Shown: piece by piece, positions 13,961 through 49,014 of the stretch
How positions within the stretch are numbered: the first letter of the stretch is position 1
Layout of the letters: every line of letters starts with the position of its first letter
Virus record (IMG/VR): IMGVR_UViG_2861048470_000006
Direction: 5' to 3' (one strand)
Source: a virus
Taxonomy: Duplodnaviria; Heunggongvirae; Uroviricota; Caudoviricetes
Length of the DNA: 57,518 bases
The notes under the pieces: model-generated
Database searches by the model: none
The model's input: only the letters and a program-made list of their open reading frames with translations
Told to the model about the DNA's origin: nothing
Position numbers and translations under genes: made by a program

Positions 13961-14701
13961 TTAACTGGCGGTGACGGTGATTTCTGCAACCGCAGCAAAC
14001 TCACCATTACCGGATACGACCGGAATGTTGACCTTACCTGCAGCAACGCCATTCACGGTGATGGTCATACCACTGACCGACACGGTGGCTTTTGTTTTAT
14101 CCGCTGACACCGCACGGAAGCTCTTGTCAGTTGCACCCTCCGGCTGGAATGCCACGGTCAGCGTGGTGCTCTGCCCTTTCACCACCGAGGAGCTGGCAGG
14201 CGTCACAGTCATACCGGTTGCCGCCGTCACCGTACTGCGATCTTCTGCCATTGACGGACGGCCCACATTGGTGACCTTCACCGTACGGGTGATCACTTCC
14301 TTCGCCGTCACCGCCTTACCGATACTGCTGACCCAGCCACGGAACACATCGACCGTGCCGTTCGGGAAGCGGATTTTATAGGCACGGGTATCGCCTTCAT
14401 TAAACCACGCCAGCAGCGCCTGCTGCCCCTGCTCTCCGGGCATCCACGCCAGCGTGAAGCTGGTATCTCCGGCAGATTTCTGCCCCTGCCCGGTCGCAGT
14501 CCAGTCTGCATCTTCATCATCGAGATAGCTGTCGTCATAGGACTCAGCGGTCAGTTCGCCGGGCGTCAGGTCTTTAACTTTTGCCAGACGCGACCAGTCA
14601 ACGTCTGAAAGCGGATTCGCATAAGGGTCACCGCTTCCCTTATAAACCCACAGGGTGGTCCCGGCACCTTTCACCGGCATTACAGGATTTGGTACAGGCA
14701 T
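13961..14701 (-). CDS. V: major tail protein V (with C-terminal Ig-like domain)
   Basis: 246-aa ORF matching lambda gpV; RBS GAGGACGCT ATG retained next to the IS end. Confidence 0.9.
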
Positions 14702-14769
14702 AGCGTCCTCACATTTGTAACCGGCTCATTTAAACCGTCTGGTCTGTTTCCTCCGGCTCTACAAAAATA

Positions 14770-15447
14770 ATGTCCATCATTTTTAATGGACACTATCGTA
14801 TGAAACACCGGACCTGGATCACTGAAGCTTTACGTCTTCACTTTGAAGAACATTTACCCCGGGTTGTGGCCGGGCGTCGCCTGGGTGTACCAAAATCAAC
14901 AGTTTGTAGTATGTTCGTGCGCTTTCGGAGAGCTGGCCTTTCGTGGCCTTTGCCCGCAGGCATGTCGGAGCAGGAACTTGATGCCTGCCTTTACGGACAA
15001 TTTTCCACGGTACCAGTCGTACGTCCTGAAAGCACCGTTATATCCGAAGCCCCCGTGGTAAAAAAACGTCCCCGGCGGCCCAACTTCCCTTATGAGTTTA
15101 AAATCGCCTTAGTGGAGCAGTCACTGCAGCCCGGAGCCTGTGTGGCGCAGATCGCCCGGGAAAACGGAATCAACGATAACCTGCTCTTCAACTGGCGCCA
15201 TCAATACCGGAAAGGTGGCCTGCTGCCTTCCGGAAAAAATATGCCGGCACTGCTTCCCGTGACGTTAACGCCGGAGCCGGATAATAAAATCCCGGCCCCC
15301 GCACAGGAACCAGAGCAGATAAATACACCGCCCGACAGTCTGTGTTGTGAGCTGGTTCTGCCGGCCGGAACTCTCAGGCTTAAAGGTAAACTGACGCCGG
15401 CGTTATTACAGACACTTATCCGCGAAATAAAAGGGAGCAGCCACTGA
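14770..15447 (+). CDS. IS66-family accessory protein OrfA with extra N-terminal HTH-like extension
   Basis: 225-aa ORF; C-terminal half (RPRRPNFPYEFK...NDNLLFNWRHQYRKG) aligns with OrfA of the second IS66-family copy at 43197. Confidence 0.75.
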   Translation: MSIIFNGHYRMKHRTWITEALRLHFEEHLPRVVAGRRLGVPKSTVCSMFVRFRRAGLSWPLPAGMSEQELDACLYGQFSTVPVVRPESTVISEAPVVKKRPRRPNFPYEFKIALVEQSLQPGACVAQIARENGINDNLLFNWRHQYRKGGLLPSGKNMPALLPVTLTPEPDNKIPAPAQEPEQINTPPDSLCCELVLPAGTLRLKGKLTPALLQTLIREIKGSSH

Positions 15448-15794
15448 TGATATCTCTCCCTGCAGGTTCGCGTATCTGGCTGGTTGCAGGTATCACCGAT
15501 ATGCGAAATGGCTTTAACGGCCTGGCATCAAAAGTTCAGAACGTCCTGAAGGATGACCCGTTCTCCGGACACCTGTTCATCTTCCGCGGACGCCGGGGTG
15601 ACCAGATAAAAGTGTTGTGGGCTGACAGTGACGGACTGTGCCTCTTCACCAAACGCCTGGAGCGGGGCCGCTTCGTCTGGCCAGTCACCCGTGACGGCAA
15701 GGTGCACCTTACTCCGGCTCAGTTATCCATGCTTCTTGAAGGTATCAACTGGAAGCACCCGAAACGAACGGAACGCGCTGGAATCCGCATATAA
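15447..15794 (+). CDS. IS66-family OrfB (TnpB-like)
   Basis: 115-aa ORF, ~75% identical by eye to the OrfB at 43595; conserved [16 protein letters not shown]. Confidence 0.85.
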   Translation: MISLPAGSRIWLVAGITDMRNGFNGLASKVQNVLKDDPFSGHLFIFRGRRGDQIKVLWADSDGLCLFTKRLERGRFVWPVTRDGKVHLTPAQLSMLLEGINWKHPKRTERAGIRI

Positions 15795-15813
15795 CCCGTT
15801 GTAAAGTGAGGAT

Positions 15814-17385
15814 ATGGACACCTCACTTGCTCATGAGAACGCCCGCCTGCGGGCACTGTTGCAGACGCAACAGGACACCATCCGCCAGATGGCTGAATAC
15901 AACCGCCTGCTCTCACAGCGGGTGGCGGCTTATGCTTCCGAAATCAACCGGCTGAAGGCGCTGGTTGCGAAACTGCAACGTATGCAGTTCGGTAAAAGCT
16001 CAGAAAAACTTCGTGCAAAAACCGAACGGCAGATACAGGAAGCACAGGAGCGAATCAGCGCACTTCAGGAAGAAATGGCGGAAACGCTGGGTGAGCAATA
16101 TGACCCGGTACTGCCATCCGCCCTGCGCCAGTCTTCAGCCCGTAAACCGTTACCGGCCTCACTTCCCCGTGAAACCCGGGTTATCCGGCCGGAAGAGGAA
16201 TGCTGTCCTGCCTGTGGTGGTGAACTCAGTTCTCTGGGATGTGATGTGTCAGAGCAACTGGAGCTTATCAGCAGCGCCTTTAAGGTTATCGAAACACAAC
16301 GTCCGAAACAGGCCTGTTGCCGGTGCGACCATATCGTGCAGGCACCAGTACCTTCAAAACCCATTGCACGCAGTTATGCCGGAGCGGGGCTTCTGGCCCA
16401 TGTTGTCACCGGGAAATATGCAGACCATCTGCCGTTATACCGCCAGTCAGAAATATACCGTCGTCAGGGAGTGGAGCTGAGCCGTGCCACACTGGGGCGC
16501 TGGACAGGTGCTGTTGCTGAACTGCTGGAGCCGCTGTATGACGTCCTGCGCCAGTATGTGCTGATGCCCGGTAAAGTCCATGCTGATGATATCCCCGTCC
16601 CGGTCCAGGAGCCGGGCAGCGGTAAAACCCGGACAGCCCGGCTGTGGGTCTACGTCCGTGATGACCGTAACGCCGGTTCACAGATGCCCCCGGCGGTCTG
16701 GTTCGCGTACAGTCCGGACCGGAAAGGTATCCATCCACAAAATCACCTGGCCGGTTACAGCGGTGTGCTTCAGGCCGATGCTTACGGTGGTTACCGGGCG
16801 TTATACGAATCCGGCAGAATAACGGAAGCCGCGTGTATGGCTCATGCCCGGAGAAAAATCCACGATGTGCATGCAAGAGCGCCCACCTACATCACCACGG
16901 AAGCCCTGCAGCGTATCGGTGAACTGTATGCCATCGAGGCAGAGGTCCGGGGCTGTTCAGCAGAACAGCGTCTGGCGGCAAGAAAAGCCAGAGCCGCGCC
17001 ACTGATGCAGTCACTGTATGACTGGATACAGCAACAGATGAAAACACTGTCGCGTCACTCAGATACGGCAAAAGCGTTCGCATACCTGCTGAAACAGTGG
17101 GATGCACTGAACGTGTACTGCAGTAATGGCTGGGTGGAAATCGACAACAACATCGCAGAGAACGCCTTACGGGGAGTGGCCGTAGGCCGGAAAAACTGGA
17201 TGTTCGCGGGTTCCGACAGCGGTGGTGAACATGCGGCGGTGTTGTACTCGCTGATCGGCACATGCCGTCTGAACAATGTGGAGCCAGAAAAGTGGCTGCG
17301 TTACGTCATTGAACATATCCAGGACTGGCCGGCAAACCGGGTACGCGATCTGTTGCCCTGGAAAGTTGATCTGAGCTCTCAGTAA
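15814..17385 (+). CDS. IS66-family transposase OrfC
   Basis: 523-aa ORF with N-terminal leucine zipper, CxxC...CxxC zinc-finger and DDE core, parallel to ORF at 43992. Confidence 0.9.
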
Positions 17386-17415
17386 ATATCAATACGGTTC
17401 TGACGAGTCGCTTAC

Positions 17416-17811
17416 TCACATTTCATAGGTAATGACATAAGTCAGATCGGCTGAACTCCACAGGCCCGCATCATCGTCGCGCCGGTAGTCATAGCCGCTG
17501 GCCACCATACTGGTGATCAAATCTGACAGTGCCGGGATATCACTCATCACCGGATAAATCCGGGACTCCATCCACGAATCCAGCTCTGAATCCGGCACCT
17601 GAGCAGGCAGGAAAACTTCGATATGCAGCTCCGCCTGCCATGTATCGCTGTCCAGCTCTTCGCCCGTGTATTCAGCGCCGGTGAGATAAACGGCAACTGC
17701 CGGAAAATCCGCCCCATCAAAAACAGCGGGGCGACCATCAAAAAACGTCGCCCCGGTGTCATGCTTCTCCAGTGCATCCAGTACGGCTGCACGGAGTTCA
17801 GTATGTTTCAT
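17416..17811 (-). CDS. U: tail terminator protein U
   Basis: 131-aa ORF matching lambda gpU; its stop codon lies within the right-hand target duplication. Confidence 0.9.
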   Translation of the reverse strand: MKHTELRAAVLDALEKHDTGATFFDGRPAVFDGADFPAVAVYLTGAEYTGEELDSDTWQAELHIEVFLPAQVPDSELDSWMESRIYPVMSDIPALSDLITSMVASGYDYRRDDDAGLWSSADLTYVITYEM

Positions 17812-36888: not shown

Positions 36889-37719
36889 TTGAAAGTTATT
36901 AGCTTAATCAATATGAAAGGTGGCGTTGGTAAGTCAACATTGGCTACCAATATTGCTAATCATCTTTCAGATAAACTTGGGCAAAAAATATTATTAATAG
37001 ATATCGACCCACAATTTAACGCAACGCAATGTGTAATGGATACAAGCAAATATGTTGCACATATGAAAAGCGGAGGCGATAGCATATGTGATATTTTTTA
37101 TAGTTCAAAAATTCGACTATCTACAATGACTGGTCCTTTAGTTAACACACCTAAAGAATTAGCCGATATAACACCAATTCAATTAAATGATAATTTTCAC
37201 ATTGTTCCCGGAAGCCTTGGGCTATATAAAATTGAAATGAAACCAGGAGAAGGGATAGAAAACAAGCTTAGACGCTTTCTTAAAATCCATGAAAATGACT
37301 ATGATTATGTCATAATTGATACCCCACCAACCCCATCAGTTTGGATGTCCAGCGCATTAATTGCATCTGATTATTACCTCATTCCAGCCAAACCCGATCC
37401 TCTTTCGATCACTGGTATCGATCTATTAGATAGCATTATAAATGAGAAGAGAGAAAATTTCGATCTTAAGATTGAATGTGCGGGCATAGTTTTTAATATG
37501 GTTGAAGGTAATAGTAATTTATATGAGGAAAGTCTTCGTTACTTCAATAATCAAAAACGTTGGCGTAATAAGATCTTTAAATCATATTTGAGCAAACGTA
37601 CTGAGTTGGCAAGAAATCAAACAAGAGGCTTATTTATTAACAATTTAACGGATGAGGATATGAAGTTTTCGCTGTCTAAAATTACTGACGAACTTCTCTC
37701 TAGAGTAGGTGACTTATGA
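36889..37719 (+). CDS. ParA/MinD/Soj-family P-loop ATPase
   Basis: 276-aa ORF, TTG start with AGGAG RBS; deviant Walker A KGGVGKST, DIDPQ and Walker B-like VIIDTPP motifs; very AT-rich. Confidence 0.8.
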   Translation: MKVISLINMKGGVGKSTLATNIANHLSDKLGQKILLIDIDPQFNATQCVMDTSKYVAHMKSGGDSICDIFYSSKIRLSTMTGPLVNTPKELADITPIQLNDNFHIVPGSLGLYKIEMKPGEGIENKLRRFLKIHENDYDYVIIDTPPTPSVWMSSALIASDYYLIPAKPDPLSITGIDLLDSIINEKRENFDLKIECAGIVFNMVEGNSNLYEESLRYFNNQKRWRNKIFKSYLSKRTELARNQTRGLFINNLTDEDMKFSLSKITDELLSRVGDL

Positions 37720-38222
37720 CTGACAAAAAAAATAACTCAAAAGAAATTAAGCAACTGTTAAACTTTTTAGAGGAGTTTTCCTTTATTTCAAAAAAATTAT
37801 CAAGAATCAACTTTATTGAATTACTTCAAGATAGTTATACTGATAATTTAGAAGTTAACGAAAGAAATTCAAAGTCCAAAAAAAATGATATTAAAGGTTT
37901 CCTTGTTGGGTATCTTCCGAGGATTTTATTAGACAAAGATCTCTTCCAAAAAAATAAAGATATAGATGATTTTGCACGCATGTTAGGTATCGAAATCAGC
38001 AGGCCTGAAAAAAGATCTAGAGAGGAAATGATCGGCATAATCGTGTGTGACGTTCACGAGAAAAACTCATCCGATTTAGGTAAGGCTTATAATATTATCA
38101 ATTCAATGTCAAATAACCCTCTAGTTTTGAGTAGAATAAAAGAGAGGAAGAACCTTTCTAGCGCTCAAAATGAGATATATGACTGGAATGAAGTTATAAA
38201 AGATATATTCAATAAGGACTAA
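37716..38222 (+). CDS. hypothetical protein, second gene of ParA-like operon
   Basis: 168-aa ORF overlapping ParA stop by 4 nt (ATGA); Lys/Asn-rich; no motif recognised. Confidence 0.5.
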   Translation: MTDKKNNSKEIKQLLNFLEEFSFISKKLSRINFIELLQDSYTDNLEVNERNSKSKKNDIKGFLVGYLPRILLDKDLFQKNKDIDDFARMLGIEISRPEKRSREEMIGIIVCDVHEKNSSDLGKAYNIINSMSNNPLVLSRIKERKNLSSAQNEIYDWNEVIKDIFNKD

Positions 38223-38224
38223 CA

Positions 38225-38920
38225 ATGTCGAGAGAAGTAAACAGCGATTTCACTGAGTTAGTTACTTATTTCTCTGAATATAAATTAAAAAATGTTTTCG
38301 AGAATATTAACTCAAGAGGGAAAATAAGCATGATACATAAGAGATATTATTCTTTTATGTGCCTTGTTTACTGTTTGTATCATTTCTCCAAGGAGAAAAT
38401 AGACGCCAACTCATTGGAGCGATTGCAAGAAGCTTCATCTGACCTTGGTACAGCTATGTTTATGGTTATAAATGGTGCATACAAACCAGCAAATCTAATG
38501 ATGCGAAGTTATATTGAAAATTCTTTAAAATCAATCGGTTGCTTACTAGATCCTTCAATACTTGAAGAAAAATCATTGTTTAAGGTAATTGAACAAACTG
38601 GGGAACATCCTGTCTTCAAAAAAAATCCTCTACTACATGAAACTTTAAAAGCTGAATACTCTTCGTTATGCAGTCACGTACATACAGCTACTGTAAAAGA
38701 AATGGCTCACATAAAAGCTTTAAATGTTTTTCCCGAAATAGACTTGGTTAAAATAGATAATATTTCGAAGGTGATTGATAAGGTGGTTAAGACTATGATA
38801 TCAACTATCATAAGAATTTTTCCTGATGTTTTCTTTTCCTTTGCACCTGAGTATCGAGAAAAAATCCTCCTTAGCTTAACCTCTGCACAACGAGCCTCAC
38901 TTCATTCCTTAAGTGATTAA
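38225..38920 (+). CDS. hypothetical protein, third gene of ParA-like operon
   Basis: 231-aa ORF 2 nt after previous stop; no motif recognised. Confidence 0.5.
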   Translation: MSREVNSDFTELVTYFSEYKLKNVFENINSRGKISMIHKRYYSFMCLVYCLYHFSKEKIDANSLERLQEASSDLGTAMFMVINGAYKPANLMMRSYIENSLKSIGCLLDPSILEEKSLFKVIEQTGEHPVFKKNPLLHETLKAEYSSLCSHVHTATVKEMAHIKALNVFPEIDLVKIDNISKVIDKVVKTMISTIIRIFPDVFFSFAPEYREKILLSLTSAQRASLHSLSD

Positions 38921-38933
38921 CTAACAAGTATGA

Positions 38934-38966
38934 CATAAAAACTATCCTATTGTGATAGTTTTTATG
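38934..38966 (+). terminator. 13-bp-stem hairpin directly after the three-gene operon (putative terminator)
   Basis: CATAAAAACTATC-ctattgt-GATAGTTTTTATG; coordinates anchored to stop at 38918-38920. Confidence 0.4.
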
Positions 38967-39116
38967 TTCATTAAGATGACTATATCAGGAATTATTGCCG
39001 AATTTTAATTTTCATATTGATTTTACTATCTCTCACCAACTCTTGTAAGTATCCTTCCGCCACAAGCGGACCATGTGCATTTAAATATCTGACCTAACGT
39101 GCCGTAACGCCGCAAT

Positions 39117-39140
39117 GTCCGCTTCTGGCACAAAGCAGAC
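39117..39140 (+). repeat. 24-bp imperfect direct repeat, copy A (GTCCGCTTCTGGCACAAAGCAGAC)
   Basis: 20/24 identity with copy B at 42790-42813; internal dyad symmetry GTCCGC...GCAGAC. Confidence 0.4.
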
Positions 39141-39202
39141 GCCCACTCTCACGCGAATGCTTTGCCCTTGACTTGCCAACAACCGTATCGCTTGCTCCGC
39201 AA

Positions 39203-40495
39203 CTATGGTTTTTTATTAGAATCTTCGCCACTAAATAAATTATAATAAATTGATTTTATTAGATATCTGTCAGAATCTATATGGTCAGCACGAGTAGCAT
39301 GCTCTAATGTTTCAAATGCTAGGGTTTGTGCGGCTTCAGCAAAAATTCCAGGCCAACCCTTACTCAGCATCGACAGTCCTTTAAGGATCCTTATCTGAAT
39401 TTCCCTCATACTGGCACCATCGCGCGCAACAGGTGAGAAAAAGTCTTCAAGTAGATCGTTATTCTGAAGTGGTGCAACATGTACAGAAGGATATTTCACT
39501 TCTATTTCATCAGATTTATTCTGCGCGTAAGCGGAAAGTATACGTACACCTCTGCCAATGACATCAATGGCGGTTCCAGGATCGTTCACTGCGGGGGAAA
39601 GGGCTCGGCAGGCTATTTCGGCCATGACGCTAAGACAAAATCGGGGGTCCTGAGCAAATGAACGTACATCCGAGACAATAATCGTCTCAAGTAAATCGGT
39701 GCTGATTGATGACTCCTGGCCCTGACTCAGGTACAAAACTGGCGTGGACGGATGTATGAAACTGCCCGGCTGCGCCACGAGGTATACATGACGGGGATCA
39801 TTGGTCAGCAGCTTGCTGAGTTTCACCATATCAACATATTCAACATAGCCAATCTTTTTCGGATAAACTGCAACCGTTCCTTTCGGCTGTTCATTGTTCT
39901 CAAGCCATGGATATCCGCCGAGACAGGGATTTCTTGCTCTCGCAATAAATGTTTCGATGGCCGCCTGTTCTACTTTTGCCGTTGTCTCACCAACCCTCCC
40001 CAGAGAGGTCAAATGCTGTATCCAGCGAAGCAATGTGATGAGGATTAAGGCAATGACAACCAGTGTTACAATGAATAAAATGACTCTCCCCCTTTCTCCA
40101 TAAGCTCCCATATTGAGGGCAATAATCCCTACCAGACTGAAGAGAAAAGAACCGATGAAGGTGGCCAGTACATTTTGTGTGGTGACGTCTTCAACAACTA
40201 AACGAGTAGCTCTGGGAGTCACATTAGTAGTGGCTGAACCGTAGGCTGTGACCATGATGCTCAGCGAAAATGTGGTCACTGCCAGCATACTCGATGCCAG
40301 TATGTTCAGAATGTTATCGACTGCTTCCGCACCAACCTTCACGGAAACCGACTCAGGTATCATTGATTTAAAAAGAATTGATAAAAGGGCCGTTATTATT
40401 GCGACAATTGCGAATAACGTTGCCCTGAACCATAGTTTTTTAAATGTCTGCTTCAGCATCCATTTCCAGCGTGAAATCATTCTGCATTCCCTCAT
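39203..40495 (-). CDS. DUF2254-like multi-TM membrane protein
   Basis: 430-aa ORF with N-terminal TM helices and large soluble C-terminal domain; family from recollection. Confidence 0.5.
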   Translation of the reverse strand: MRECRMISRWKWMLKQTFKKLWFRATLFAIVAIITALLSILFKSMIPESVSVKVGAEAVDNILNILASSMLAVTTFSLSIMVTAYGSATTNVTPRATRLVVEDVTTQNVLATFIGSFLFSLVGIIALNMGAYGERGRVILFIVTLVVIALILITLLRWIQHLTSLGRVGETTAKVEQAAIETFIARARNPCLGGYPWLENNEQPKGTVAVYPKKIGYVEYVDMVKLSKLLTNDPRHVYLVAQPGSFIHPSTPVLYLSQGQESSISTDLLETIIVSDVRSFAQDPRFCLSVMAEIACRALSPAVNDPGTAIDVIGRGVRILSAYAQNKSDEIEVKYPSVHVAPLQNNDLLEDFFSPVARDGASMREIQIRILKGLSMLSKGWPGIFAEAAQTLAFETLEHATRADHIDSDRYLIKSIYYNLFSGEDSNKKP

Positions 40496-40543
40496 ATTGC
40501 AGCCGGGATAAATAAATGCCGCCTCTGTGGCGGCATGTTGCTG

Positions 40544-42547
40544 TTAACGAACCAGATGCAGGAAGTGCAGGTGTTTTTCGTACTGGTCCAGTATGTCATT
40601 AATCAGCTGTTCCTGATTCCAGCCCATTACATCATAATTTTGGCCGCCCTCTTTGAGATAGACTTCAGCGCGATAATATCGATGTTGTTCACTCTGCTGC
40701 TCATCATTATCCAGCGCAGCGAGCGCGAAGGTCGGTGAGTTATACCCGCGAAGCCTCACTTCATATATATAATTCAGCTCGTTGCCCAAATCGACTTCAA
40801 GGCGAATACGATCCTCGGCGGCGTCACTGATGTGGCTTATCGTTCCCTGCTTGTTAAGTTCCTCCTGAACCAGCGTCATGGCGGGTTGGATAATGTCGTC
40901 CATAAAACGTTTCACAAGAGAGCGCTTCGGCAAATACGCGATATTGCGTAACCTTCTCTGCCAGGGAATTGGGTTACGTGCAGCCGTAGGAGCAATAGTC
41001 GCCATGCTAAGGCTTTCACGCTTGGTCAAATCCCGACGCAGGGCTTTTAACAGTCCGTATATGGATATTAATAAGATAACTGAGAAGGGCAATGCACTCG
41101 CTATCGTTACGGTTTGCAACGCACTCAGCCCCCCTGCGATCAGCAGGGCAATAGCAACAACGCCCATGAGCAATGCCCAGAAAATTCGCTGCCAGACGGG
41201 CGTGTTTGCCACCCCACCTGATGCCAGAGTATCCACAACCATTGCCCCCGAATCAGCAGACGTTACAAAGAAGACGATGACCATCGCCATTGCAATGAAT
41301 GACAGCACGGAAGAGAACGGGAAATGCTCCAGGAAATTAAACAGGGCAAGCGCAACATCCTGCTGAACGGTATTGGCGAGGTCAGTGGCGCCCTGGTTCA
41401 TGATGAGATAGATGGCGCTGTTTCCAAACACCGTCATCCACATGAGCGTAAAGCCGGCGGGAACAAACAACACGCCAGTCACGAACTCACGAATTGTCCT
41501 GCCGCGGGAAACGCGTGCAATGAACATACCTACAAACGGCGACCATGAAAGCCACCATCCCCAGTATAATAATGTCCAGCCCCCCAGCCAGTTGCTCGAC
41601 TTGGGTTCATACGCGTAAAGGTTGAACGTTTTACTCACCAGTTCCGACAGATAACCACCCGTATTTTCCACAAATGACTTCAGCAGAAGCACAGTGGGAC
41701 CCAGGCACAAGACCAGCGCCAGGAGCAACACCGCCAGGCCCAGATTAAGCTCAGACAGGATGCGTATTCCCTTGTCCAGGCCGGACACCACCGAAATCGT
41801 CGCTAACCCCGTGATGACCACGATCAAAATGACCTGTACCGTTTCATTGATGGGCACGCCGAAAAGATGGTTCAAACCGGCATTCACCTGCAATACACCG
41901 TAACCCAGCGATGTTGCAACGCCAAAGACAGTGCCTATCACGGCGAAGATATCAACCGCGTGGCCTATAGGCCCGTAAATGCGATCGCCGATAATGGGAT
42001 AGAGCGCAGAACGCAGCGTTAAAGGCAGACCGTGACGGTAACTGAAAAAGGCCAGAATCAGCGCCACGATGGCATAAATTGCCCATGCGTGCAGACCCCA
42101 GTGGAAGAACGTCAGGCGCATGGCTTCCTTCGCTGCCGCAACGGTCTCTGGAGTGCCGACAGGTGGCGAAAGATAATGCATCACAGGTTCGGCAACGCCA
42201 AAGAACATCAGGCCGATCCCCATCCCTGCCGAAAAAAGCATCGCGAACCAGGAGTGGTAGCTGAAATCAGGCTGCGCATGGTCTGGGCCCAGCTTTATAT
42301 CACCGTAACGTGAGAGTCCAAGGAACGTGACGCTCAGTAAAATCAGGGCCACAGCAAGTATGTAGAACCAGCTGGCATTCGTGAAGATTTGTTGCTGAAG
42401 TAGTTTAAAATTTTTGTCGGCGACATCCGGGAATACGGCGGCAAAGGCGACAAGAAGGAAAATTAGCAAAGCAGATGTAAAGAATACCGCTTTGTTAACC
42501 TGGCTTGTAGACTTCTTTGGGGTTGTATCATTTTCACTCATAATCAT
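40544..42547 (-). CDS. BCCT-family transporter (BetT/BetU-like choline/betaine transporter)
   Basis: 667-aa ORF; conserved BCCT segments (GDIKLGP, WTLLYWGWWLSWSPFVGMFIARVSRGRTIREF) parallel E. coli BetT as recalled. Confidence 0.85.
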   Translation of the reverse strand: MIMSENDTTPKKSTSQVNKAVFFTSALLIFLLVAFAAVFPDVADKNFKLLQQQIFTNASWFYILAVALILLSVTFLGLSRYGDIKLGPDHAQPDFSYHSWFAMLFSAGMGIGLMFFGVAEPVMHYLSPPVGTPETVAAAKEAMRLTFFHWGLHAWAIYAIVALILAFFSYRHGLPLTLRSALYPIIGDRIYGPIGHAVDIFAVIGTVFGVATSLGYGVLQVNAGLNHLFGVPINETVQVILIVVITGLATISVVSGLDKGIRILSELNLGLAVLLLALVLCLGPTVLLLKSFVENTGGYLSELVSKTFNLYAYEPKSSNWLGGWTLLYWGWWLSWSPFVGMFIARVSRGRTIREFVTGVLFVPAGFTLMWMTVFGNSAIYLIMNQGATDLANTVQQDVALALFNFLEHFPFSSVLSFIAMAMVIVFFVTSADSGAMVVDTLASGGVANTPVWQRIFWALLMGVVAIALLIAGGLSALQTVTIASALPFSVILLISIYGLLKALRRDLTKRESLSMATIAPTAARNPIPWQRRLRNIAYLPKRSLVKRFMDDIIQPAMTLVQEELNKQGTISHISDAAEDRIRLEVDLGNELNYIYEVRLRGYNSPTFALAALDNDEQQSEQHRYYRAEVYLKEGGQNYDVMGWNQEQLINDILDQYEKHLHFLHLVR

Positions 42548-42789
42548 TTATTCCATTAATTAAATCCGCACTGGATAGAAGGTACTACCTCTCACAGAGT
42601 AGCAAAGTTCAACTGGCTATGCGGGATTAATCGGAATGCATGGTGGAATGAGTGCCGATACAAATCATCCTATATTCTAAGGAGTTTTAAGTTACTCAGC
42701 CTGCCAATTACTGGGGCATTTAATTTGTATGATCTGTATCAAAGCTGGGATATAAGTTAAGTGAAGTATATTAGGCACGAATTACCAGC

Positions 42790-42813
42790 GTCTGCTCTTG
42801 GCACAAAGCGGAC
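42790..42813 (+). repeat. 24-bp imperfect direct repeat, copy B (GTCTGCTCTTGGCACAAAGCGGAC), abutting IS3
   Basis: see copy A; last 3 nt GAC are the IS3 target duplication. Confidence 0.4.
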
Positions 42814-42878
42814 TGATCTTACCCAGCAATAGTGGACACGCGGCTAAGTGAGTAAACTCTCAGTCAGAGGTGACTCAC

Positions 42879-43125
42879 ATGACAAAAACAGTATCAACCA
42901 GTAAAAAACCCCGTAAACAGCATTCGCCTGAATTTCGCAGTGAAGCCCTGAAGCTTGCTGAACGCATCGGTGTTACTGCCGCAGCCCGTGAACTCAGCCT
43001 GTATGAATCACAGCTCTACAACTGGCGCAGTAAACAGCAAAATCAGCAGACGTCTTCTGAACGTGAACTGGAGATGTCTACCGAGATTGCACGTCTCAAA
43101 CGCCAGCTGGCAGAACGGGATGAAG
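42879..43125 (+). pseudogene. insE: IS3 orfA (insE) 5' portion, interrupted by nested ISEc8-like element; remaining orfA codons resume at 45568
   Basis: MTKTVSTSKKPRKQHSPEFRSEALKLAERIGVTAAARELSLYESQLYNWRSKQQ... reads through to RDE then hits the IS end; continuation [17 protein letters not shown] found after the nested element. Confidence 0.85.
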
Positions 43126-43196
43126 GTAAGCGTACAGCCTGAACCGTCTGGTCAGAATCTGACAAATTAGACAAAGTGGTGTCCACCAAATAAGTA

Positions 43197-43598
43197 GTGG
43201 GAACCAAAGTGTCAGATATGCAGAAAAATGTGACTCCCGGCAGGCGAAAAGGCTGCCCTAATTATCCTCCCGAATTTAAACAGCAGCTCGTTGCTGCCTC
43301 CTGTGAACCCGGGATATCCATCTCAAAACTTGCTCTTGAAAATGGCATTAACGCCAATCTGTTGTTCAAATGGCGACAACAATGGCGCGAGGGAAAGCTG
43401 CTATTACCTTCTTCAGAGAGCCCCCAGCTACTTCCTGTGACTCTCGATGCAGCTGCCGAACAGCCAGAATCGCTCGCAGAGGACCCGGAAACCCTCAGTA
43501 TCAGCTGTGAGGTAACGTTCCGGCACGGGACGCTCCGCTTCAATGGCAATGTCAGCGAAAAGCTCCTGACTCTGCTGATACAGGAACTGAAGCGATGA
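43197..43598 (+). CDS. IS66-family OrfA
   Basis: 133-aa ORF. Confidence 0.85.
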   Translation: MGTKVSDMQKNVTPGRRKGCPNYPPEFKQQLVAASCEPGISISKLALENGINANLLFKWRQQWREGKLLLPSSESPQLLPVTLDAAAEQPESLAEDPETLSISCEVTFRHGTLRFNGNVSEKLLTLLIQELKR

Positions 43599-43942
43599 TC
43601 CCGTTACCTTCCGGGACCAAAATTTGGCTGGTTGCCGGTATCACCGATATGAGAAATGGCTTCAACGGCCTGGCTGCGAAAGTACAAACGGCGCTGAAAG
43701 ACGATCCCATGTCCGGCCATGTTTTCATTTTCCGGGGCCGCAGCGGCAGTCAGGTTAAACTGCTGTGGTCCACCGGTGACGGACTGTGCCTCCTGACCAA
43801 ACGGCTGGAGCGTGGGCGCTTCGCCTGGCCGTCAGCCCGTGATGGCAAAGTGTTCCTTACGCAGGCGCAGCTGGCGATGCTGCTGGAAGGTATCGACTGG
43901 CGACAGCCCAAGCGGTTGCTGACCTCCCTGACCATGCTGTAA
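43595..43942 (+). CDS. IS66-family OrfB (TnpB-like)
   Basis: 115-aa ORF, 4-nt overlap with orfA. Confidence 0.85.
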
Positions 43943-43991
43943 ATCTCTTTATCCTGGTTGTCACAGAATAAGCCCGGTAAAATACGGGCTT

Positions 43992-45530
43992 ATGAACGAC
44001 ATCTCTTCTGACGACATCTTCCTGCTGAAACAGCGCCTGGCCGAACAGGAAGCGCTGATCCACGCCCTGCAGGAAAAGCTGAGCAACCGGGAGCGCGAAA
44101 TAGACCATCTGCAGGCGCAGCTGGATAAACTCCGCCGGATGAACTTCGGCAGTCGTTCCGAAAAAGTCTCCCGCCGTATCGCACAAATGGAAGCCGATCT
44201 GAACCGGCTTCAGAAAGAGAGCGATACGCTGACTGGTAGGGTGTATGACCCGGCTGTACAGCGTCCGTTGCGTCAGACCCGCACCCGTAAGCCGTTCCCT
44301 GAATCACTACCCCGTGACGAAAAGCGACTGTTGCCTGCGGCGCCGTGCTGCCCGAACTGCGGCGGTTCACTGAGCTATCTGGGCGAGGATACCGCCGAAC
44401 AGCTGGAGTTGATGCGTAGTGCCTTCCGGGTTATCCGGACGGTACGGGAAAAACATGCCTGTACTCAGTGCGATGCCATCGTGCAGGCACCTGCACCTTC
44501 GCGGCCCATCGAGCGGGGTATCGCCGGACCGGGGCTGCTGGCCCGCGTGCTGACCTCGAAGTATGCAGAGCACACCCCGCTGTATCGCCAGTCAGAAATA
44601 TACGGCCGGCAAGGTGTGGAGCTGAGCCGTTCACTGCTGTCGGGCTGGGTGGATGCATGCTGCCGGCTGCTGTCTCCGCTGGAAGAGGCGCTTCATGGCT
44701 ATGTCATGACTGACGGCAAACTCCATGCCGATGATACCCCGGTCCAGGTACTGCTGCCGGGTAATAAGAAGACGAAGACCGGGCGGTTGTGGGCGTATGT
44801 TCGTGATGACCGCAATGCCGGGTCAGCGTTGGCACCTGCAGTGTGGTTCGCTTACAGCCCGGACAGAAAAGGCATCCATCCGCAGACTCATCTTGCCTGC
44901 TTCAGCGGTGTGCTGCAAGCGGATGCGTACGCCGGGTTCAACGAGCTGTATCGCAATGGTGGGATAACGGAAGCTGCCTGCTGGGCTCATGCCCGCCGAA
45001 AGATCCACGATGTGCACGTCCGCATCCCGTCAGCACTGACGGAAGAAGCCCTGGAGCAGATCGGTCAGTTGTACGCCATAGAGGCGGATATAAGGGGAAT
45101 GCCGGCAGAGCAGCGGCTTGCTGAACGTCAGCGAAAAACGAAACCGCTGTTGAAATCCCTGGAAAGCTGGTTGCGTGAAAAGATGAAAACCCTGTCGCGA
45201 CACTCAGAACTGGCGAAAGCGTTCGCATACGCCCTGAACCAGTGGCCGGCGCTGACGTACTATGCAGATGATGGCTGGGCTGAGGCGGACAATAACATCG
45301 CTGAAAATGCGTTGCGGATGGTCAGTCTGGGCCGCAAAAACTACCTGTTCTTCGGTTCGGATCATGGAGGAGAGCGGGGAGCGCTGCTGTACAGCCTGAT
45401 CGGGACGTGCAAACTGAACGGAGTGGAGCCAGAAAGCTACCTCCGCTATGTCCTTGACGTCATAGCCGACTGGTCGATAAACCGGGTCGGCGAACTGCTC
45501 CCCTGGCGCGTAGCACTGCCGACTGAATAA
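43992..45530 (+). CDS. IS66-family transposase OrfC
   Basis: 512-aa ORF. Confidence 0.9.
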
Positions 45531-45624
45531 CACATCCCCGTCAATACGGTTCTTGCTGCACGCTTACGGATGAAGAGCTGGCTATCCTCCAAAAGGCCGC
45601 GACATACTTCGCGAAGCGCCTGAA

Positions 45625-46491
45625 ATGAAGTATGTCTTTATTGAAAAACATCAGGCTGAGTTCAGCATCAAAGCAATGTGCCGCGTGCTCCGGGTGGCCC
45701 GCAGCGGCTGGTATACGTGGTGTCAGCGGCGGACAAGGATAAGCACGCGTCAGCAGTTCCGCCAACACTGCGACAGCGTTGTCCTCGCGGCTTTTACCCG
45801 GTCAAAACAGCGTTACGGTGCCCCACGCCTGACGGATGAACTGCGTGCTCAGGGTTACCCCTTTAACGTAAAAACCGTGGCGGCAAGCCTGCGCCGTCAG
45901 GGACTGAGGGCAAAGGCCTCCCGGAAGTTCAGCCCGGTCAGCTACCGCGCACACGGCCTGCCTGTGTCAGAAAATCTGTTGGAGCAGGATTTTTACGCCA
46001 GTGGCCCGAACCAGAAGTGGGCAGGAGACATCACGTACTTACGTACAGATGAAGGCTGGCTGTATCTGGCAGTGGTCATTGACCTGTGGTCACGTGCCGT
46101 TATTGGCTGGTCAATGTCGCCACGCATGACGGCGCAACTGGCCTGCGATGCCCTGCAGATGGCGCTGTGGCGGCGTAAGAGGCCCCGGAACGTTATCGTT
46201 CACACGGACCGTGGAGGCCAGTACTGTTCAGCAGATTATCAGGCGCAACTGAAGCGGCATAATCTGCGTGGAAGTATGAGCGCAAAAGGTTGCTGCTACG
46301 ATAATGCCTGCGTGGAAAGCTTCTTTCATTCGCTGAAAGTGGAATGTATCCATGGAGAACACTTTATCAGCCGGGAAATAATGCGGGCAACGGTGTTTAA
46401 TTATATCGAATGTGATTACAATCGGTGGCGGCGGCACAGTTGGTGTGGCGGCCTCAGTCCGGAACAATTTGAAAACAAGAACCTCGCTTAG
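45625..46491 (+). CDS. insF: IS3 transposase OrfB (DDE integrase-like catalytic domain)
   Basis: 288-aa ORF; normally expressed as OrfAB fusion by -1 frameshift. Confidence 0.9.
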
Positions 46492-46592
46492 GCCTGTGTC
46501 CATATTACGTGGGTAGGATCAGACAACCACGCTAGCTCTACCCTGTGCCACAAAATGTCAATTTGCATCTGAACTAATGCACTTTAATCTCG

Positions 46593-46763
46593 TCACTTCA
46601 ATAAATACCGAACATCCCCCTGATAAAACGACAATATGCGCTGCATAACTTCGCTCTTCCGGCACTCGCGACAGATTATGTTTAGGCGACTGTCGTAGCG
46701 ACGTATTTCTCCGTCAGGTAATGACCAGATAAGGTCCGGATCAACCACAACCGGTTTCTTCAG
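46593..46763 (-). pseudogene. 3' fragment of a ~140-aa phage replication-region gene split by IS100
   Basis: in-frame continuation (…KLKKPVVVDPDLIW…) of the 5' fragment once one copy of the duplication is removed. Confidence 0.7.
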
Positions 46764-46770
46764 TGTCAAT

Positions 46771-48974
<2,204 letters not shown>

Positions 48975-49014
48975 AAGCCCTCCTGAAAATTACCTCATGA
49001 CCAGAAATTAACAC

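Follow-up and report, generated by a model that had tools for sequence, protein, structure and literature searches.

Nested insertion sequences in a lambdoid prophage: an ISEc8-like IS66-family element inside IS3 orfA and the order of the two insertions

The viral DNA record IMGVR_UViG_2861048470_000006 (Caudoviricetes), a stretch of 57,518 nucleotides hereafter called the window, carries a run of transposase genes between positions 42811 and 46524. This locus raises the question of whether two insertion sequences (ISs) lie there one inside the other and, if so, which of them arrived first. The original prediction proposed that an IS66-family element resembling ISEc8 interrupts orfA of an older IS3, and that each element is bordered by its own target duplication. 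To answer this question, window coordinates were checked by script, the region 42600-46800 was read and its open reading frames (ORFs) were listed. Our observations cover the anatomy of the locus, both duplications, the identities of the elements, the two states that preceded the nest and the order in which the elements arrived. We consider it highly probable that two successive simple transpositions, IS3 and then the ISEc8-like element, explain the locus, and we found no evidence contradicting this two-step model.

Judged by its sequence, the outer element is IS3 itself (IS3 family). Its left part (IS3 nucleotides 1-312; 42814-43125, plus strand) contains the left inverted repeat (42814-42852) together with the first 82 codons of orfA and one further nucleotide. 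Its right part (IS3 nucleotides 313-1258; 45576-46521) contains the 3' end of orfA (up to 45628), the AAAAG slippery site (45591-45595), orfB (45625-46491, 288 amino acids) and the right inverted repeat (46483-46521), all on the plus strand. The orfB product matched the NCBIfam profile NF033516 (transpos_IS3) with 339 bits against a cut-off of 160. The element starts with TGATCTTACCC at 42814 and finishes with GGGTAGGATCA at 46521, with ends TGATC.../...GATCA and imperfect 39-base-pair (bp) inverted repeats in which 28 of 39 positions are complementary. Altogether the interrupted IS3 spans 42814-46521, a 3,708-bp IS3::ISEc8 unit bordered by GAC on the left (42811-42813) and on the right (46522-46524). 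The proposed 3-bp duplication was thus exact, as were all the coordinates and sequences quoted with it.

When 42814-43125 was joined to 45576-46521, which removes the inner element (43126-45567) and one copy of the 8-bp sequence GGATGAAG, we obtained the uninterrupted IS3 that had been predicted, 1,258 bp long, with an open 99-amino-acid orfA and an open 288-amino-acid orfB in the 0 and -1 frames. This restored copy was identical at 1257 of 1258 positions to IS3A of K-12 MG1655 (insE1/insF1), and scored the same against the IS3 occupying the same site in the enterotoxigenic Escherichia coli (ETEC) strain 120899. The sole difference, at 43013, is a synonymous CAG versus CAA, both encoding Gln45 of OrfA; apart from this base the left part equals K-12 IS3A and the ETEC same-site IS3, and the right part is identical to both. 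The length of 1,258 bp, the TG...CA ends, the imperfect 39-bp repeats, the 3-bp duplication, the 0/-1 arrangement of orfA and orfB and the AAAAG slippery site are all common to K-12 IS3A and the window copy. Unlike in K-12 IS3A, orfA in the window holds a 2,450-bp insert, made of the inner element and one duplicated 8-mer.

The two copies of GGATGAAG lie at 43118-43125 (IS3 nucleotides 305-312) and 45568-45575, immediately on either side of the inner element; the probability that two fixed positions would share 8 bp by chance is 4^-8, about 1.5e-5. In the intact IS3 at the same site of ETEC 120899, GGATGAAG is present once. For the outer duplication, a query made of the left and right flanks joined with a single GAC gave a one-piece match in 315 complete E. 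coli genomes, with 100% identity in H3 and AST215. Both halves of the claim that each element has its own target duplication were borne out by these alleles.

The state with IS3 alone is also preserved. In seven ETEC genomes (120899, 103605, 204446, 504237, ETEC-2265, TW10722 and LR883006), both flanks (left, up to 42813; right, starting at 46522) match at 99.8-100%, and the gap between the two flank matches is exactly 1,258 bp in 7/7. Read base by base, 120899 and 504237 have IS3 ends, a GAC duplication and flanks identical to those of the window, and RefSeq annotates at the ETEC same-site IS3 an intact transposase with a 'programmed frameshift'. Since alleles with an empty site and alleles with IS3 only both exist, IS3 was in place before the IS66-family element arrived. 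The order that had been read from the nesting alone is therefore demonstrated, beyond inference, by the seven genomes with an uninterrupted 1,258-bp IS3 at this position.

In the scenario that we favor, the setting is the early/replication region of a lambdoid prophage in ETEC-related E. coli. IS3 first entered the intergenic stretch that separates a BCCT-transporter gene from a DUF977 gene, duplicating GAC. In one sub-lineage, a resident element of the ISEc8-variant type then moved into codon 83 of IS3 orfA, duplicating GGATGAAG; an identical copy of this element is located elsewhere in related chromosomes.

What, then, is the inner element? It is 2,442 bp long (43126-45567, plus strand) and encodes three genes on the plus strand, namely tnpA (43218-43598, 126 amino acids) and tnpB (43595-43942, 115 amino acids), whose products are IS66-family accessory proteins, and tnpC (43992-45530, 512 amino acids), an intact ORF for an IS66-family DDE transposase. 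All three products passed the cut-offs of their NCBIfam profiles (NF047595, 97.6 bits against 74; NF033819, 120 bits against 50; NF033517, 461 bits against 180). The start of tnpB overlaps the stop of tnpA as ATGA. By consensus, elements of the IS66 family end in inverted repeats of some 20-30 bp that start with GTAAGCG. Those of the inner element (approximately 43126-43147 and 45546-45567) match at 19 of 22 positions and both begin GTAAGCGT; the left terminus reads GTAAGCGT and the right one ends in ACGCTTAC. The element thus shows the three genes with the tnpA/tnpB overlap, the terminal repeats and the 8-bp target duplication, which is a hallmark of the IS66 family (PMC6778807). IS679 and IS66, which serve as the experimentally studied models of the family (Han et al. 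2001, J Bacteriol 183:4296, and Machida et al. 1984, as cited in PMC6778807), likewise have three genes and an 8-bp target duplication; IS679 differs in its size of about 2.7 kb and in its longer TnpA.

Among the copies that RefSeq labels 'IS66-like element ISEc8 family', those of O157:H7 (e.g. strain PA20) have the same length of 2,442 bp, a tnpA-tnpB-tnpC order with the ATGA overlap, GTAAGCGT ends and 97.5% nucleotide identity to the inner element; ISEc8 also shares the 8-bp duplication. The predicted assignment as an ISEc8-like IS66-family element of 2442 bp with an 8-bp duplication is in agreement with these profiles and copies. As for the PA20 copy itself, it adjoins an IS256 fragment and has no duplication. 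The same RefSeq accession of TnpA (WP_001171554.1) is used for O157:H7 ISEc8 and for a copy in ETEC 120899 that is 100% identical to the inner element, and the TnpB accession is common to both as well. This ETEC 120899 copy adjoins the pco copper-resistance genes, shows 0 differences over 2,442 bp and has its own 8-bp duplication, AATTTACA. The variant is common, with 317 records whose best match was at least 99% in our search of 5,426 complete E. coli genomes.

The differences from O157:H7 ISEc8 are very unevenly distributed. Out of 61 in total, 8 fall in nucleotides 1-2021 (0.40%, that is, 99.6% identity over the first 2,021 bp) and 53 in nucleotides 2022-2442 (12.6%); this diverged right end of 421 bp corresponds to 45147-45567 in the window and includes 4 differences in the right terminal repeat. 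At the protein level, TnpC is identical at 497 of 512 residues (97%), and 14 of the 15 amino-acid changes lie past residue 425; RefSeq names the TnpC of the variant just 'IS66 family transposase'. On this evidence the inner element reads as an ISEc8 variant whose right end has been replaced and is mosaic. It is safely called 'ISEc8-like' or 'ISEc8 variant', and its mosaic pattern suggests that ISEc8 recombined with another IS66-family element. Because it is 100% identical to another copy, this mosaic-ended variant appears to have moved recently in the lineage.

We then considered the coding consequences of the insertion. It had been placed after about codon 82 of orfA, with the reading frame resuming past the element; we found the break after the first base of codon 83. 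The truncated gene (42879-43142, plus strand) would encode a chimeric OrfA' of 87 amino acids, with OrfA residues 1-82 followed by GKRTA from the inner element and a stop. IS3-family elements produce their transposase as a fusion of OrfA and OrfB, through -1 frameshifting at A-AAA-G. Such frameshifting has been described for IS911 (PMC8944449). No Rfam family matched 42000-49000 at E<=0.1, and the IS3 frameshift signal is without a matching family there. Since the break in orfA lies 15 nucleotides upstream of the AAAAG site, the OrfAB fusion should not be made by the nested IS3, which would make at most the 87-amino-acid truncated OrfA and a free-standing OrfB. The proposed inactivation of IS3 is thus correct insofar as the fusion is broken, judging from the sequence and the established biology of IS3; both ends of the element are intact, so that 'non-autonomous' would be the more exact term than 'inactivated', and mobilisation of the nested IS3 in trans is possible in principle.

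The inner element, by comparison, is probably able to transpose, because tnpA, tnpB, tnpC and both repeats are intact and a 100%-identical sister copy exists. All three genes are reportedly required for IS66-family transposition, according to work by Han et al. in 2001. We regard the element as having probably transposed recently and as probably still active. A further consequence can be imagined, in which the 87-amino-acid OrfA', keeping its N-terminal helix-turn-helix, would act as a dominant trans inhibitor of other IS3 copies and/or the whole 3,708-bp IS3::ISEc8 unit would be moved by OrfAB in trans with its active IS66-family passenger; this we consider unlikely.

Three points temper parts of the two-step model. 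The first is the base at 43013, where the window IS3 has G and the same-site IS3 of 120899 and 504237 has A. The second is that the disabling of IS3 and the activity of the inner element are both deduced from sequence. The third concerns nomenclature: our naming takes RefSeq-labelled ISEc8 copies as its reference, and formally the element may be either an ISEc8 isoform or a separately named IS.

Of these, the 43013 allele bears on the route of the inner element. G at this position is a common IS3 allele, with an exact match in 2,576 records, including other IS3 copies of ETEC 120899, and the difference may have arisen by point mutation or through gene conversion, over a short tract, with a paralogous IS3 copy as donor. 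Under either explanation IS3 occupied the site first. A more elaborate route would have the ISEc8-like element hit an IS3 copy elsewhere, after which this interrupted copy took the place of the intact IS3 resident here, whether through homologous recombination, gene conversion or transposition of the 3.7-kb unit with OrfAB supplied in trans. Such a route would account for a G that fits the paralogous copies, including the others in ETEC 120899, and not the same-site A of 120899 and 504237, and the intact IS3 ends would in principle permit mobilisation in trans. However, other IS3::ISEc8 nests were not found in the 5,426 complete genomes, which leaves no known donor, and the landing of a unit at the very site of the relatives with the same GAC would be an extraordinary coincidence. 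A point mutation explains the single transition at least as simply, and replacement also needs an IS3 at the site first. We therefore judge this route very improbable and retain direct insertion of the ISEc8-like element into the resident IS3.

As ISs are classic sources of mis-assembly, we also considered whether the nest could be a mis-join between repeated IS copies. Its rarity could be taken in favor of such an artefact: a 160-bp query spanning the left junction had no true match in the 5,426 complete E. coli genomes. Four genomes were covered at 80% or more, three of them by two-piece coincidences and the fourth, EC291, by a locus discussed below. Likewise, exact scans for the junction 36-mer GCTGGCAGAACGGGATGAAGGTAAGCGTACAGCCTG gave no match in metagenome contigs or in contigs of species-representative genomes. 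Yet a mis-join would not yield a perfect 8-bp duplication or an exactly restorable IS3. Furthermore, an exact-protein look-up of the 87-amino-acid OrfA' returned two contigs, and the one shown, scaffold_873 of the ENA metagenome ERZ28649315, has the identical IS3/IS66 left junction, the ParA/DUF2254/BCCT context on the left and G at 43013. Because this independent assembly carries the identical left junction, an artefact is excluded for practical purposes, and its probability is negligible. The nest is real, rare and lineage-specific. As a separate observation, the best whole-region BLAST matches, H1 among them, were rejected as nests; they contain an IS66-family element and an intact IS3 situated 2 kb apart, flanking acyltransferase/esterase genes.

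Does the presence of the nest indicate that IS66-family elements prefer this region? Another IS66-family element, belonging to a different subtype, had been noticed in the prophage, and we confirmed it as an ISCro1-like element of 2,699 bp at 14717-17415, with a 225-amino-acid TnpA; RefSeq names its relatives 'ISCro1 family'. It is flanked by an 8-bp duplication, TCACATTT (14709-14716 and 17416-17423), and separates two minus-strand genes, those for the major tail protein (13961-14701) and the tail terminator (17416-17811). Because the duplicated TCACATTT contains the stop codon of the tail terminator gene, neither tail ORF is broken; the insertion could nonetheless exert polar effects on the late operon. 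The same insertion occurs in one piece, at 98.7% identity, in the water-buffalo isolate NZ_CM171611.1; the ETEC relatives are outside the top matches for it.

From these two elements, repeated targeting of the region had been proposed, and the idea could be extended to IS3 orfA as a hotspot, given that in EC291 the left end of an ISEc8-like element is joined to IS3 orfA 9 bp away from the break in the window. Nevertheless, when four intact 8-bp targets, taken from copies of the ISEc8-like and ISCro1-like types, were compared (GGATGAAG, AATTTACA, ACCGCACC and TCACATTT), no consensus emerged, and the two IS66-family elements of the prophage are 28 kb apart in different, unrelated phage modules. 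IS3 and IS100, which belong to other families, have accumulated in the same prophage as well, and the nest had no true match among the 5,426 genomes even though most of them carry both elements. As for the EC291 junction, it belongs to a scrambled IS mosaic with 7 filler bases and no matching duplication. Active targeting of the region or of IS3 orfA is thus a poor explanation, to which we attach very little probability; the pattern fits ISs building up passively in prophage DNA that is dispensable, and directed targeting is not supported.

The EC291 locus (NZ_AP027445.1, 4770-9713) was accordingly rejected as evidence for a hotspot, being a rearranged mosaic instead of a simple insertion. There, the left part of IS3 stops at IS3 nucleotide 303 and is followed by 7 unrelated bases (AACATTC) and the left end of the ISEc8-like element. 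This element is in turn cut in tnpC by an oppositely oriented IS66-family element, followed by a fragment of a different IS3-family element. A matching duplication was present at no junction of the locus, which resembles an IS graveyard.

Both elements, and nested ISs as a phenomenon, are already known, and the locus is an ordinary case. ISs inside ISs are common in IS-rich enterobacterial genomes, and the significance of this one is small beyond annotation. It has some value for teaching and benchmarking, in that the empty site, IS3 alone and the nested IS3 are all preserved as real sequences.

With regard to its surroundings, PHROGs profiles were matched along the window for central tail fibre J, tape measure, major tail, tail terminator, major head, portal, large terminase, replication initiator, exonuclease and integrase. 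In ETEC 120899, annotations across the syntenic region include lysis genes, the Q antiterminator, RusA, HokD, cI/Cro-type regulators and excisionase. Based on this gene set and the syntenic annotation, we take the window to be one lambdoid prophage. Within it IS3 is intergenic, lying about 270 bp upstream of the divergent BCCT-family transporter gene (40544-42547, minus strand) on one side, with the stop codon of the DUF977 gene 71 bp away on the other. Its position could affect expression of the BCCT transporter.

An IS100 copy (IS21 family, 1,954 bp) is present at 46764-48717 on the minus strand, with a 5-bp TTCAG duplication that brings the feature span to 46759-48722. In the window it splits the DUF977 gene of the prophage. 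In the seven ETEC relatives DUF977 is intact, and an IS100 in the opposite orientation lies between the BCCT gene and IS3. Since the position of IS100 differs between the window and these relatives, the two sub-lineages acquired it independently, at sites about 4 kb apart. Taken together, the nest and the alternative IS100 positions precisely mark one sub-branch lineage of this ETEC-associated prophage.

Finally, the BCCT gene is part of a non-phage cargo module (36889-42547) situated between the hokD/nin-type region and the replication genes. The module encodes a ParA-family ATPase, two hypothetical proteins, a DUF2254 membrane protein and the BCCT-family (betaine/carnitine/choline-type) transporter, and it is found without IS3 in many E. 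coli.

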